Positions 40,117 through 44,944 of a stretch of DNA of 64,000 nucleotides are shown piece after piece. Position numbers and translations under genes: made by a program. Every line of letters starts with the position of its first letter. The stretch's first letter is position 1. The notes beneath the pieces were generated by a model, which made no database searches, was not told the origin of the DNA, and was given only the letters and a program-made list of their open reading frames with translations. Source of the DNA: Escherichia coli (GTDB lineage Bacteria > Pseudomonadota > Gammaproteobacteria > Enterobacterales > Enterobacteriaceae); the NCBI RefSeq assembly GCF_017348835.2, contig NZ_CP071375.1; one strand, written 5' to 3'.

Positions 40117-40368
40117 ATGGCCAGAACGATGACGGTTGATCTCGGCGATGAGTTGCGTGAATTTATCGAGTCCTTAATTGAATCCGGCGACTATCGCACC
40201 CAAAGCGAAGTGATCCGTGAGTCACTGCGCTTACTTCGAGAAAAGCAAGCAGAGTCTCGCCTGCAAGCGTTACGTGACATGCTTGCAGAAGGGTTGAGTA
40301 GTGGTGAAGCTCAGCCGTGGGAAAAGGACGCGTTTTTACGGAAGGTGAAAGCAGGGATAAGGAAATAA
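40117..40368 (+). CDS. parD: Type II antitoxin ParD (ribbon-helix-helix, CopG/ParD family)
   Basis: 83-aa ORF MARTMTVDLGDELREFIESLIESGDYRTQSEVIRESLRLLREKQ...; RBS acaggagag upstream. Confidence 0.75.
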   Translation: MARTMTVDLGDELREFIESLIESGDYRTQSEVIRESLRLLREKQAESRLQALRDMLAEGLSSGEAQPWEKDAFLRKVKAGIRK

Positions 40369-40369
40369 T

Positions 40370-40666
40370 GTGCGTATTATTAAACTCATGCCAAAAGCCA
40401 ATGAGGATTTAGAAGGCATCTGGTATTACAGTTATCACCATTTCGGCGAACCACAAGCCGACAGATATGTGGAACATCTTTCAGACGTTCTCCAGATTCT
40501 GAGTAACAATAATATAGGTACGCCCAGACCTGAATTAGGCGAAGGTATTTTTGTTCTTCCTTTTGAACGCCACGTAATTTATTTCCTGCAATCACCAGGG
40601 GAAATTATCGTCATTCGTACCCTTAACCAAAACCAGGACGCCACCAGACATTTACACTGGAGCTAA
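40370..40666 (+). CDS. parE: Type II toxin ParE (RelE/ParE superfamily)
   Basis: 98-aa ORF (GTG start one nt after the parD stop) …GTPRPELGEGIFVLPFERHVIYFLQSPGEIIVIRTLNQNQD…, typical ParE C-terminal block. Confidence 0.75.
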   Translation: MRIIKLMPKANEDLEGIWYYSYHHFGEPQADRYVEHLSDVLQILSNNNIGTPRPELGEGIFVLPFERHVIYFLQSPGEIIVIRTLNQNQDATRHLHWS

Positions 40667-40768: not shown

Positions 40769-42130
40769 ATGTTTAAACCGGAACTCCTTTCCCCGGCGGG
40801 AACGCTGAAAAATATGCGTTACGCTTTCGCTTATGGCGCAGATGCTGTTTATGCGGGCCAGCCGCGTTACTCCCTGCGTGTGCGCAACAACGAATTCAAC
40901 CACGAAAACCTTCAGCTCGGCATCAATGAAGCCCACGCGCTGGGGAAAAAGTTTTATGTCGTGGTCAACATTGCACCGCACAACGCCAAGCTGAAAACCT
41001 TTATCCGTGACCTGAAACCGGTGGTGGAAATGGGGCCGGATGCGCTGATTATGTCCGATCCAGGGCTGATTATGCTGGTGCGTGAGCACTTCCCTGAAAT
41101 GCCGATCCACCTCTCGGTGCAGGCTAACGCCGTAAACTGGGCGACGGTGAAATTCTGGCAGCAAATGGGCCTGACCCGCGTGATCCTCTCTCGCGAGCTG
41201 TCGCTGGAAGAGATTGAAGAGATCCGTAATCAGGTGCCGGATATGGAGATCGAGATCTTCGTTCACGGCGCACTGTGCATGGCCTACTCCGGTCGCTGCC
41301 TGCTCTCTGGCTATATCAACAAGCGCGACCCGAACCAGGGTACCTGCACCAACGCCTGCCGCTGGGAGTACAACGTCCAGGAAGGGAAAGAAGATGAAGT
41401 TGGCAACATCGTACACAAGTACGAGCCGATTCCGGTGCAAAATGTTGAGCCGACGCTGGGTATCGGCGCGCCAACCGACAAAGTGTTTATGATCGAAGAG
41501 GCCCAGCGTCCGGGCGAGTATATGACCGCGTTTGAAGATGAGCACGGCACTTACATCATGAACTCGAAAGATCTGCGCGCCATCGCCCATGTAGAACGCC
41601 TTACCAAAATGGGCGTGCATTCGCTGAAAATCGAAGGTCGTACCAAATCTTTCTACTATTGCGCACGCACCGCACAGGTTTACCGCAAAGCTATCGATGA
41701 TGCCGCTGCGGGCAAACCGTTTGACACCAGCCTGCTGGAAACCCTGGAAGGTCTGGCGCATCGTGGCTATACCGAAGGTTTCCTGCGTCGTCATACTCAC
41801 GACGATTATCAGAACTACGAATACGGTTATTCAGTTTCTGACCGCCAGCAGTTTGTAGGTGAGTTTACCGGTGAGCGCAAGGGGGACCTCGCGGCGGTAG
41901 CGGTGAAAAATAAATTCTCCGTTGGCGACAGCCTTGAGCTGATGACGCCGCAAGGCAACATTAACTTTACCCTTGAGCACATGGAAAACGCCAAAGGTGA
42001 AGCGATGCCGGTCGCACCAGGCGATGGTTATACTGTGTGGCTCCCGGTCCCGCAGGATCTTGAGCTCAATTACGCTCTGCTGATGCGTAATTTCTCCGGG
42101 GAAACCACGCGTAACCCACACGGTAAGTGA
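40769..42130 (+). CDS. yegQ: Peptidase U32-family protein YegQ (TrhP, implicated in tRNA 5-hydroxyuridine synthesis)
   Basis: 453-aa ORF MFKPELLSPAGTLKNMRYAFAYGADAVYAGQPRYSLR... Confidence 0.9.
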   Translation: MFKPELLSPAGTLKNMRYAFAYGADAVYAGQPRYSLRVRNNEFNHENLQLGINEAHALGKKFYVVVNIAPHNAKLKTFIRDLKPVVEMGPDALIMSDPGLIMLVREHFPEMPIHLSVQANAVNWATVKFWQQMGLTRVILSRELSLEEIEEIRNQVPDMEIEIFVHGALCMAYSGRCLLSGYINKRDPNQGTCTNACRWEYNVQEGKEDEVGNIVHKYEPIPVQNVEPTLGIGAPTDKVFMIEEAQRPGEYMTAFEDEHGTYIMNSKDLRAIAHVERLTKMGVHSLKIEGRTKSFYYCARTAQVYRKAIDDAAAGKPFDTSLLETLEGLAHRGYTEGFLRRHTHDDYQNYEYGYSVSDRQQFVGEFTGERKGDLAAVAVKNKFSVGDSLELMTPQGNINFTLEHMENAKGEAMPVAPGDGYTVWLPVPQDLELNYALLMRNFSGETTRNPHGK

Positions 42131-42214
42131 TTAATTTCGATTATTTTTCCCGGATGGAAAATTCTTAGAAACCGATCACATACAGCTGCATTTATTAAGG
42201 TTATCATCCGTTTC

Positions 42215-42301
42215 GCTGAAAAACATAACCCATAAAATGCTAGCTGTACCAGGAACCACCTCCTTAGCCTGTGTAATCTCCCTTACACGGGCTTATTTTT
42301 T
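42215..42301 (+). ncRNA. cyaR: CyaR (RyeE) Hfq-dependent sRNA
   Basis: gctgaaaaacataacccataaaatgctagctgtaccaggaaccacctccttagcctgtgtaatctcccttacacgggcttatttttt matches my memory of CyaR, including the terminal hairpin and U-tract. Confidence 0.85.
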
Positions 42302-42459
42302 ATGCATAAGCCCTATCCCTGGTCACCGTCTTCCATTGACCACATCGATAGAATCTCCCTTCATAGCACGATGCCTTTCACGTAACGGCATCGTGCTCGC
42401 ACAGGTTCCGGCTAAGCACAACCAGAACGCGCATGTTTGACGCTTACCAAAAAATATTC

Positions 42460-42777
42460 TCACTCTCCACATTTGAATGTCAGACGAGCGACGCCATGTA
42501 ATCCTGCACCTTCTGTCTTCAGGTCAACTATCTGCATTTTTTTGCCCTGAGTAACACAGAAATGGGCTGCATCATTTTTTACTATATTTTCTGCACCAGA
42601 TATTCTACCCCTGGCTAAAGAAGCTTCGGCTTCGGTGTAGTATTGGTTATCGAGTTTACGCTGAATATTACTTTTATATGCAAGACCAAATTTACCGATA
42701 CTTGTCTCATCATTATGCACAGCACAACCAGACATAAGAAAAATACTAAATAATGATATAGCAACTATCTTTTTCAT
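42460..42777 (-). CDS. yegR: Small lipoprotein YegR
   Basis: 105-aa ORF MKKIVAISLFSIFLMSGCAVHNDE… with lipobox LMSGC. Confidence 0.8.
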   Translation of the reverse strand: MKKIVAISLFSIFLMSGCAVHNDETSIGKFGLAYKSNIQRKLDNQYYTEAEASLARGRISGAENIVKNDAAHFCVTQGKKMQIVDLKTEGAGLHGVARLTFKCGE

Positions 42778-43183
42778 CTCACCTTCCCCCCATTAAATAC
42801 CAACGACACGCCCTGGTGTTTAAATATAATAATGGCATGATTATTATAATTGAATAGGATTATAATAAATGTTCTGTACAACATTTCCTACATAAGTAGG
42901 AATTACGGACATGGAGGCCCTTCCGGGTAACTCTATGGGGGCTTTAATATATTATATTGAAGATGCCACTGTTTAGTTGAATATTAGGTATATGCTCTTT
43001 TTTGAAATTTATCGGTGGCTGCCGTTAGTATTCGCTGTCCCCATTGCAAGCTCCTGGTGGTAACCACTGAATCCTCCATACTTGAACTGACTATTTATCC
43101 TCCGACTTTCATCCTGTTCTGACTCCACCTTTTCTTTTCTGCTCTACACTATCTACAGACCAATCATAAAGGCACATACGATC

Positions 43184-44083
43184 ATGGCAGAATTTCCCGC
43201 CAGCTTACTGATTCTTAATGGCAAAAGTACTGACAATCTACCCTTGCGCGAAGCAATTATGCTGTTGCGTGAGGAAGGAATGACGATCCATGTGCGGGTC
43301 ACCTGGGAGAAAGGCGATGCCGCACGATATGTAGAGGAGGCCCGGAAGTTGGGCGTCGCAACGGTGATTGCCGGTGGTGGCGATGGCACCATTAATGAAG
43401 TTTCTACGGCGTTGATTCAGTGTGAGGGGGATGACATACCCGCGCTGGGAATTTTGCCATTAGGAACCGCCAATGATTTTGCCACCAGTGTAGGGATTCC
43501 TGAGGCACTGGATAAGGCGCTGAAACTGGCAATTGCCGGTAACGCCATTGCGATAGATATGGCGCAGGTCAACAAACAAACCTGTTTTATTAATATGGCG
43601 ACAGGCGGATTTGGGACGCGTATTACCACAGAAACGCCGGAAAAATTAAAAGCCGCGCTGGGTGGCGTCTCTTATATCATTCATGGCTTAATGCGCATGG
43701 ATACTCTGCAACCGGACCGTTGTGAAATCCACGGTGAAAACTTTCACTGGCAAGGTGACGCCCTGGTCATTGGTATTGGTAACGGGCGTCAGGCCGGTGG
43801 CGGTCAACAATTGTGCCCGAACGCGTTAATTAACGATGGCTTGCTGCAACTGCGCATTTTTACCGGCGATGAAATTCTTCCGGCTCTCGTATCAACCTTA
43901 AAATCTGACGAAGATAACCCGAATATTATCGAAGGCGCTTCGTCGTGGTTTGATATACAAGCCCCACACGAAATCACTTTTAATCTTGATGGCGAACCGT
44001 TGAGTGGGCAAAACTTCCATATTGAAATACTTCCGGCGGCGTTGCGTTGTCGATTACCACCAGATTGTCCATTATTGCGTTAA
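43184..44083 (+). CDS. yegS: Lipid kinase YegS (DAGK_cat family)
   Basis: 299-aa [49 protein letters not shown]...GGDGT…. Confidence 0.9.
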
Positions 44084-44164: not shown

Positions 44165-44944
44165 CTACACCGTAATTAATTTTACCCGTGTCTTCTGCAA
44201 TGCCAGTTTATCCACCTCTGACACGGCATCATCGGTAATAATAATGTCAATTTTTTCGATTGGCAGTACCTGATTAAAACCGCGACGATTAAATTTCGAT
44301 GAATCGAGAACGGCAATCACTTTATTTGCGGCGGTGACCATCGCCCCGCTAATCGAATAACCTTCATTAAAGGTCGTAATACCATTAACCGCATCAATAC
44401 CATCAGCACCGACAAACATTAAATCGGCATTAATATCCTGCAATGAACGCTCGGCAATGGAACCATGCATCGAGCGCGTTTTATGGCGGACCGTGCCACC
44501 ACAGACGACCAGAGTAATGTCTTTATTTTCGGAAAGGGCAAACGCTGCCGGGAGACTGTTGGTAATCACCGTGATATTTTTGGCGGTCATTAATCCTTCG
44601 GCGATAAGCATTGTCGTACTTCCGCTGTCGAGAATAACGGTCATCCCTTCGTGGATCATTTTGACTGCCGCCTGCGCTATTCTGTTTTTTGGCGCGCTGG
44701 CGAGCTGAAATCGCTCTTTAAACCCGACTTCCTGGGTCTCGGTTTCACTATTACCGGACATTATTTTCGCCGCACCGCCATGAAAGCGCGTAACCACGCC
44801 TTTTTGTTCGAGAAAGCGCAAATCGGCACGGATTGTCGCTTCCGAGGCAGCAAATACTCCCGCCAGATCCTGAACAAGCACGGTTCCCTGTTCATTCACT
44901 AATTGGATGATCTTATTCCTTCGCTCGAATGAATTCATCGTCAT
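44165..44944 (-). CDS. gatR: DeoR-family galactitol operon repressor GatR (apparently intact)
   Basis: 259-aa uninterrupted ORF MTMNSFERRNKIIQLVNEQGTVLVQDLAGVFAASEATIRADLRFLEQKG…; no IS element interrupts it. Confidence 0.88.
   Translation of the reverse strand: MTMNSFERRNKIIQLVNEQGTVLVQDLAGVFAASEATIRADLRFLEQKGVVTRFHGGAAKIMSGNSETETQEVGFKERFQLASAPKNRIAQAAVKMIHEGMTVILDSGSTTMLIAEGLMTAKNITVITNSLPAAFALSENKDITLVVCGGTVRHKTRSMHGSIAERSLQDINADLMFVGADGIDAVNGITTFNEGYSISGAMVTAANKVIAVLDSSKFNRRGFNQVLPIEKIDIIITDDAVSEVDKLALQKTRVKLITV

Follow-up and report, generated by a model that had tools for sequence, protein, structure and literature searches.

The 3' end of the small RNA gene cyaR in the Escherichia coli DNA analysed here (the window, a stretch of 64,000 nucleotides) coincides with a 27-bp sequence (42275-42301) which, on sequence identity, is an intact and empty chromosomal attachment site (attB) of bacteriophage P2 and its relatives. 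As a whole, the locus is very probably best explained by an empty P2 attB in the cyaR terminator, with an older P2-like residue lying beyond the core. That the 3' end of cyaR is a P2 attB is textbook-level and already known. The relic of a P2-type P arm next to the core and the boundaries of the segment that it opens represent a small and modest addition, of which we found no description; the 1992 paper on locI of E. coli C, reportedly by Barreiro and Haggard-Ljungquist in J Bacteriol, was outside the literature searched.

The original prediction had placed cyaR directly between yegQ and yegR, about 160 bp from the latter, with no P2-like remnant in between. Both parts of this description stood: the order yegQ–CyaR–yegR was found in the window with 158 bp (42302-42459) separating the end of CyaR from the yegR stop codon, and the window contained one copy of the att core and no ogrK or yegZ DNA. 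CyaR was matched by the Rfam model RF00112 (CyaR_RyeE) at 42213-42298 on the + strand with a score of 100.7 bits (gathering score 47), covering model positions 1-85 of 85, and a permissive Rfam search (E ≤ 1) of the interval 42100-43250 returned no RNA gene besides CyaR. In K-12 and Salmonella, transcription of this sRNA is CRP-cAMP-dependent and the RNA binds Hfq. RefSeq annotation of identical or near-identical genomes gave the same yegQ, yegR and yegS calls (Table 1). The sRNA gene lies downstream of yegQ, the end of which is 82 bp 5' of CyaR, and among the 120 Enterobacterales loci listed in our cyaR survey this yegQ-cyaR synteny was kept wherever upstream sequence exists, with 82-100% protein identity of the YegQ encoded beside cyaR.

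Table 1 Features of the yegQ-yegS interval, in window coordinates
Feature	Position	Strand	Description and basis
yegQ (trhP), conserved left flank	40769..42130	+	453-aa ORF; RefSeq annotation of identical DNA, strain PE164
yegQ-cyaR spacer, putative cyaR promoter	42131..42212	+	82 bp, 32.9% GC; position inferred from Rfam-defined 5' end
CyaR (RyeE) sRNA gene including terminator U-tract	42213..42301	+	RF00112 full-length match
CyaR intrinsic terminator hairpin	42266..42293	+	11 pairs, 6-nt loop; terminator scan, RNA fold, Rfam structure line
Unoccupied P2-type attB core AATCTCCCTTACACGGGCTTATTTTTT	42275..42301	+	27/27 identity to P2 attP core
Putative P2-type attP P-arm relic	42302..42352	+	Local alignment to P2; Int arm-binding homologue at 42319-42348
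E. coli-specific segment, att core to ancestral yegS leader	42302..43102		801 bp, 40.4% GC
Inverted repeat (hairpin) in cyaR-yegR spacer	42365..42397		14-bp arms, 93% complementary
170-bp insertion/deletion site, lineage-specific	42455..42456		Extra DNA in Nissle and other strains, absent in the window
yegR, predicted lipoprotein	42460..42777	-	105-aa ORF, lipobox LMSGC; RefSeq 'protein/lipoprotein YegR'
AT-rich non-coding part of the segment with divergent promoter-like sites	42778..43102		38.5% GC
Ancestral yegS leader	43103..43183	+	Common to Escherichia lineages without the segment
yegS (lipid kinase), conserved right flank	43184..44083	+	299-aa ORF; RefSeq annotation

All 27 positions at 42275-42301 were identical to the sequence annotated as 'attP' and 'Int attP core' in the P2 genome (AF063097, 24356-24382). 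Within the CyaR terminator, the core takes in the final two bases of the 5' arm and everything downstream of them (loop, complete 3' arm and U-tail), and its being intact and single-copy in the window marks it as an empty attB. The P2 tyrosine integrase carries out strand exchange within the core. A prophage integrated at this position would sit between cyaR and yegR with ogr toward cyaR and int toward yegR, and the cyaR terminator would be kept after insertion because the phage supplies an identical core. The preferred site of P2, called locI in E. coli C, has the same 27-bp core with no core difference, lies next to the position of the K-12 ogr-D' remnant and has the same prophage orientation. 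With the core placed at exact coordinates, prophage boundaries at the cyaR locus can be called to the base. The arrangement belongs to the same class as other integrations at the 3' ends of tRNA, tmRNA and sRNA genes (ssrA, or rybB in the case of other P2-like prophages; PMC3032704), with which it shares an att core overlapping the end of the sRNA terminator and an element that restores this end on insertion, and there is nothing unusual about it in this respect.

Occupancy of the site was estimated by aligning short junction-specific queries to 5,426 complete RefSeq E. coli genomes, a phylogenetically unbalanced collection. The uninterrupted junction, as seen in the window, was present in 4,204 genomes (77.5%), and a P2-type attR junction (P' arm, core and E. 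coli flank) in 817 (15.1%). The K-12-type junction with a truncated core after D' (the ogr-D' remnant) was found in 358 (6.6%), a count inflated by K-12 laboratory derivatives, and by subtraction about 47 genomes (about 0.9%) had other states at the cyaR site. The empty site is therefore the majority state in E. coli, as in this strain, and K-12 is the exception, which explains a difference between K-12 and wild strains that recurs in every E. coli comparison.

In a K-12-type genome, approximately 600 bp of extra DNA at this position correspond to ogrK and a truncated 'phage late control D family' pseudogene (yegZ). Alignment to K-12 and inspection of its junction for direct repeats, both proposed with the original prediction, placed this remnant exactly at the core inside the CyaR terminator, the core being complete toward cyaR and truncated toward yegR. 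The order in K-12 is cyaR, the full core, P2-like P-arm DNA (ACGCGTAATACAATGAAATAAAAGGATT...), ogrK, D' and the truncated core TACACGGGCTTATTTTTTT, beyond which the sequence rejoins that of the window. Such a structure would be explained by a deletion with one end in gene D and the other in the right-hand core, and with this core truncated the remnant cannot excise. The insertion point and flanks of ogrK-yegZ (the 'ogr-D'' of PMC3032704) are thus the same as those of the window site, which differs in having no remnant and a core that is whole and single.

Fuller occupancy was seen in an O157:H7 strain, where int, C and cox lie on the yegR side behind the P' arm and a full core, with approximately 31.7 kb between the two junctions. 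In other genera, ogr or int homologues were located 3' of cyaR in Citrobacter youngae, Enterobacter and Buttiauxella. Table 2 of Archer et al. 2011 (PMC3032704) gives 'cyaR RNA' as a P2 insertion site, occupied by Wphi2 (P2) in strain W, by 'ogr-D'' in K-12 and by P2*B in strain B, with nothing in Crooks, and the main part of our finding is therefore already known. The interval is polymorphic among strains, whereas identity in all of them would have counted against the original prediction. Its idea of an integration hotspot at the 3' end of an sRNA gene was supported by the intact P2 core, the K-12 remnant located there and the genomes with a P2-type attR.

Most of the DNA between the core and yegS appears to be a foreign insertion specific to E. 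coli. Homology to the window in E. whittamii, Escherichia sp. E1V33 and strain E69, in all of which yegS directly follows cyaR, ended at 42301-42305 (the end of the core) and returned at 43099-43103 (CGACTTTCATCC...), with 6-8 bp in between; resumption of homology at CGACTTTCATCC was seen in E. albertii as well. This break and return identify 42302-43102 as an insertion. The resulting 801-bp segment consists of yegR, the 158-bp spacer downstream of it and 325 bp of the AT-rich interval upstream, has a GC content of 40.4% compared to 51.2% for the window, and is taxonomically restricted, being absent from the three non-coli Escherichia above and from the 120 cyaR loci listed. Within E. coli, none of the 5,426 complete genomes showed a contiguous junction free of the segment.

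The wider survey employed a conserved CyaR pattern with one genome per species, and recovered at least 120 Enterobacterales loci. The start of yegS was 73-233 bp past the core-equivalent position in 60 of the 120 loci listed, from many genera. The gap was 251-1,000 bp in a further 18 and exceeded 1 kb in five. Homologues of P2 ogr or int followed cyaR in six (Citrobacter youngae, Enterobacter, Buttiauxella and one contaminant contig); 21 had no yegS within the sequence at hand, and in 10 the downstream sequence was too short to judge. None of the 120 loci listed encoded YegR. The branch on which the segment was gained is not fixed by the lineages sampled, a set without E. fergusonii and several cryptic clades.

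No more than 1 bp separates the start of the segment from the core edge, and its first approximately 50 bp resemble the P arm of P2 attP. The initial eight positions, 42302-42309 (ATGCATAA), matched the phage sequence ACGCGTAA at 6 of 8 positions; a stretch of approximately 16 bp belonging to the IHF site is absent from the relic, and 42319-42348 (CTGGTCACCGTCTTCCATTGACCACATCGA) was identical at 27 of 31 positions to P2 CTGGTCACGTCCACACATTGACCACATCGA, which contains the annotated Int P-arm binding site. The score of this alignment was 38, compared to 17.3 ± 2.4 (maximum 27) for shuffled sequences, and none of 500 shuffles reached 38. MAFFT independently produced the same alignment, with the P-arm relic collinear with the core. 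A segment that opens at the core edge with a P-arm relic suggests that the 'empty' attB probably represents the attL of a P2-like prophage of older date, now decayed.

We consider it probable that the 801-bp segment as such was left by an earlier P2-like prophage and became fixed in E. coli. On balance we also favour the fuller reading, in which the P2 site would be an ancient prophage attL with a fixed residue made up of the P-arm relic, yegR and a spacer that is H-NS-bound in K-12. The decayed insertion scar suggested originally for the yegR-yegS spacer thus returned in a wider form, the whole of 42302-43102 being apparently foreign and starting with the P-arm relic. Neither blastn against the phage collection nor short-word blastn against P2-like DNA revealed phage genes or phage-like DNA in 42353-43102, and the relic reading consequently rests on approximately 50 bp and the position of the boundary.

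No significant second att core was detected at the right junction (around 43070-43100): a degenerate candidate was rejected with an alignment score of 14 against a background of 10.4 ± 2.4, a value reached by 13% of random windows. A 10-bp repeat (AATCTCCCTT, the first 10 bases of the core) at 42352 was likewise not accepted as another att site; several other places in the window score equally, and MAFFT set it against the left arm of the ogr terminator of P2. The hairpin at 42365-42397 occupies the position of the P2 ogr/F-operon terminator, with unlike sequence.

The same slot in E. albertii holds 3.4 kb between cyaR and yegS with cdtABC (identified by Pfam matches) flanked by a full attL and a full attR. 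Its left edge consists of the core and P arm, and its right edge of the P' arm, a near-perfect core, TGTACCG and CGACTTTC. P2-like prophages are known to carry cdt-V (PMC6823313), and both the E. albertii cdtABC slot and the O157 cdt-V P2-like prophages likewise combine small cargo, the cyaR-yegS slot, and a core with P arm. E. albertii has kept both att copies and the P' arm with a toxin operon as cargo, whereas the E. coli yegR segment has kept only the left core and P-arm relic with a lipoprotein gene as cargo. By analogy, the cdtABC slot shows what would be an earlier stage of the same prophage decay, and how a P2-like prophage can be reduced to a few kb of cargo.

Judging from its sequence, yegR is a real gene. 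Its family (PF27694) is nearly confined to E. coli and Shigella, and 22 columns of the family alignment are invariant, among them two cysteines of the mature protein. Homologues with 40-79% identity were found in unrelated chromosomal contexts, where DNA similarity ends within 10 bp of the ORF, and also on about 89 plasmids with flanking IS elements. Searches of YegR against local copies of Pfam and NCBIfam produced no match above threshold. The AlphaFold model (mean pLDDT 78.7) gave no significant Foldseek match in the PDB, the best having E = 0.07 with TM below 0.4. Alignment of YegR to 50,697 phage records by tblastn recovered only ON470606 and AY639599, both of which include host DNA, and no true phage homologue. 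A match of YegR to phrog_21109 (E = 1e-70) was discarded as a probable artefact of phage records with host flanks, such as ON470606. At least these two public 'phage' records carry host DNA from the cyaR site.

The interval between yegR and yegS (42778-43183) had been described in the original prediction as markedly AT-rich and devoid of a credible ORF, and possibly an H-NS-bound regulatory region. Its GC content was 39.2% compared to 51.2% for the window, within the lowest 2.6% of 406-bp windows, which makes it AT-rich rather than extreme, yegR itself being lower still at 38.1%. The longest ORFs in the spacer encode 31-39 aa, and each is interrupted, by a stop codon or a frameshift, in one or more of the strains K-12, Nissle and FDAARGOS_1077. 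They were rejected as genes, none being conserved across the four comparison strains, and the description of the interval therefore held. Promoter-like hexamers were present on both strands, TAAACA-18-TATATT at 42975-42946 (- strand) and TTTAAA-17-TATTAT at 42819-42847 (+ strand), and the same two sets are given as the K-12 promoters of yegR and yegS, respectively (PMC3946193). In Table 1 of that work (Shimada et al. 2014), the K-12 yegR-yegS spacer binds RpoD holoenzyme in genomic SELEX, and it is flagged as containing an H-NS site (PMC3946193). Across this stretch the window is 96.7% identical to K-12. The published data on H-NS and RNA polymerase support the H-NS reading directly for K-12; the shared hexamers and this level of identity would extend it to the present strain. 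The AT-rich part would now carry divergent yegR and yegS promoters together with an H-NS site, as in the K-12 literature.

A different origin of the segment was also weighed, namely that it arrived independently of P2, for instance through illegitimate recombination or with some other element, and that the resemblance to the P arm goes back to a P2-like ancestor which took up host DNA adjacent to attB by imprecise excision, giving 30 bp of P-arm-like sequence. We regard this as unlikely, although the segment lacks a right-hand core copy and phage genes, and homologues of YegR move on plasmids and among IS elements and not in phages. In P2, the P-arm sequence serves as a functional, annotated binding site of the integrase, and its repeat motif is found again in the P' arm; the attL of E. 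albertii contains the P arm, which is absent beside cyaR in segment-free Escherichia lineages. Descent from a P2-like prophage, the preferred reading, also agrees with a segment beginning within 1 bp of the core edge, which argues against an unrelated route.

Much less probable is that the spacer represents a native, vertically inherited regulatory region of yegS and that yegR and the spacer were lost elsewhere. Promoter-like sites for both genes, RNA polymerase binding in K-12 and presence of the spacer in essentially all E. coli would fit such a history. However, the short distance from the cyaR terminator to yegS (73-233 bp) in half of the loci listed, spread over many genera, and the lack of YegR in any of the 120 would mean that many separate losses had all produced the same two boundaries, and the GC content is 10 points below that of the flanks. 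Finally, the view that no real hotspot exists and that the K-12 remnant was a one-off accident can practically be dismissed: the site is empty in more than three-quarters of E. coli genomes, as this view would have it, but the 817 genomes with a P2-type attR and the 358 with the remnant refute it, E. albertii, Citrobacter, Enterobacter and Buttiauxella have this slot in use as well, and the site appears in a published list.

If the attachment site is an old attL, every new lysogen would have an attR whose core is flanked by the P' arm on one side and by a degenerate P arm on the other, and such a double-armed attR could bear on how integrase binds, on excision or on the site being used repeatedly. 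The locus would then also offer a worked example of an att site re-used after an earlier prophage had decayed to one cargo gene, and would date yegR as a lineage-specific acquisition.

Two further differences within the segment were observed in other strains. In FDAARGOS_1077, a deletion bounded by 12-bp repeats (at 42415 and 42721) has removed yegR. The 170 bp of extra DNA in Nissle and other strains lie 5 bp past the yegR stop codon and were found in 948 of the 5,426 genomes. The notion that this indel of B2-type strains is a repeated mobile element was rejected, since it is single-copy and always confined to this one locus.

The slot between cyaR and yegS, which in the window carries an empty P2-type att core (42275-42301) within the CyaR terminator, is occupied in E. 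albertii NBRC 107761 by a cdtABC toxin operon flanked by P2-type attL and attR sites. This segment is a decayed P2-like prophage in which the toxin cargo alone has been retained. Coordinates of this and other features of the region are collected in the table.

Features in and around the yegQ-cyaR-yegR-yegS locus (window positions unless a comparison sequence is named)
Feature	Coordinates	Remarks
ParD/ParE toxin-antitoxin pair	40117-40666	Between yegP and yegQ; assigned by family matches
170-bp extra DNA	L002 1057-1226; window junction 42455/42456	5 bp past the yegR stop codon
gatR, DeoR-family repressor gene	44165-44944	Intact, 259 aa
cdtABC toxin operon	L011 4930-8332	E. albertii NBRC 107761, cyaR-yegS slot

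At the right edge of the att core (42290-42313), GGGCTTAT, which makes up the terminator's 3' arm in CyaR, is a perfect inverted repeat of ATAAGCCC, located immediately past the core. Their pairing could produce an alternative hairpin across this edge; the hairpin was not present in the MFE fold.

Two records deposited as phages were found to contain E. coli chromosomal DNA of the cyaR locus. One of these, ON470606.1, extends through yegR, yegS and gatR. The other, AY639599.1 ('Phage TP'), is a cyaR-ogr remnant resembling that of K-12, and what it names a 'putative protease' is yegQ. The existence of a PHROG family for YegR (phrog_21109) is probably explained by phage records carrying host DNA in this manner. 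On a contig (L109) from a metagenome-assembled genome labelled Collinsella sp., cyaR occurs together with an exact copy of the P2 core and an Ogr of 100% identity. This is DNA of E. coli or P2 that was placed in the bin of an actinobacterium, and contamination is the likely cause.

Length variation was also evident around yegR. The AT-rich, single-copy 170-bp segment was present in 948 genomes of B2-type strains, Nissle and ATCC 25922 among them, and carries a 41-aa ORF in the annotation of one phage record. Strain FDAARGOS_1077 has lost most of yegR through a deletion of window positions 42427-42720, with endpoints at 12-bp direct repeats (AGCACAACCAGA, 42415-42426 and 42721-42732).

The ParD/ParE pair (antitoxin TIGR02606, 88 bits; toxin PF05016) is absent from the K-12-type locus and was detected in 2,138 of 5,426 complete RefSeq E. 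coli genomes, with one chromosomal copy in each. In PE164, a strain with identical DNA at the locus, the antitoxin is flagged as frameshifted in the RefSeq annotation. Finally, gatR is truncated and adjoins an IS3 element in the K-12-type arrangement, whereas the copy in the window is whole.
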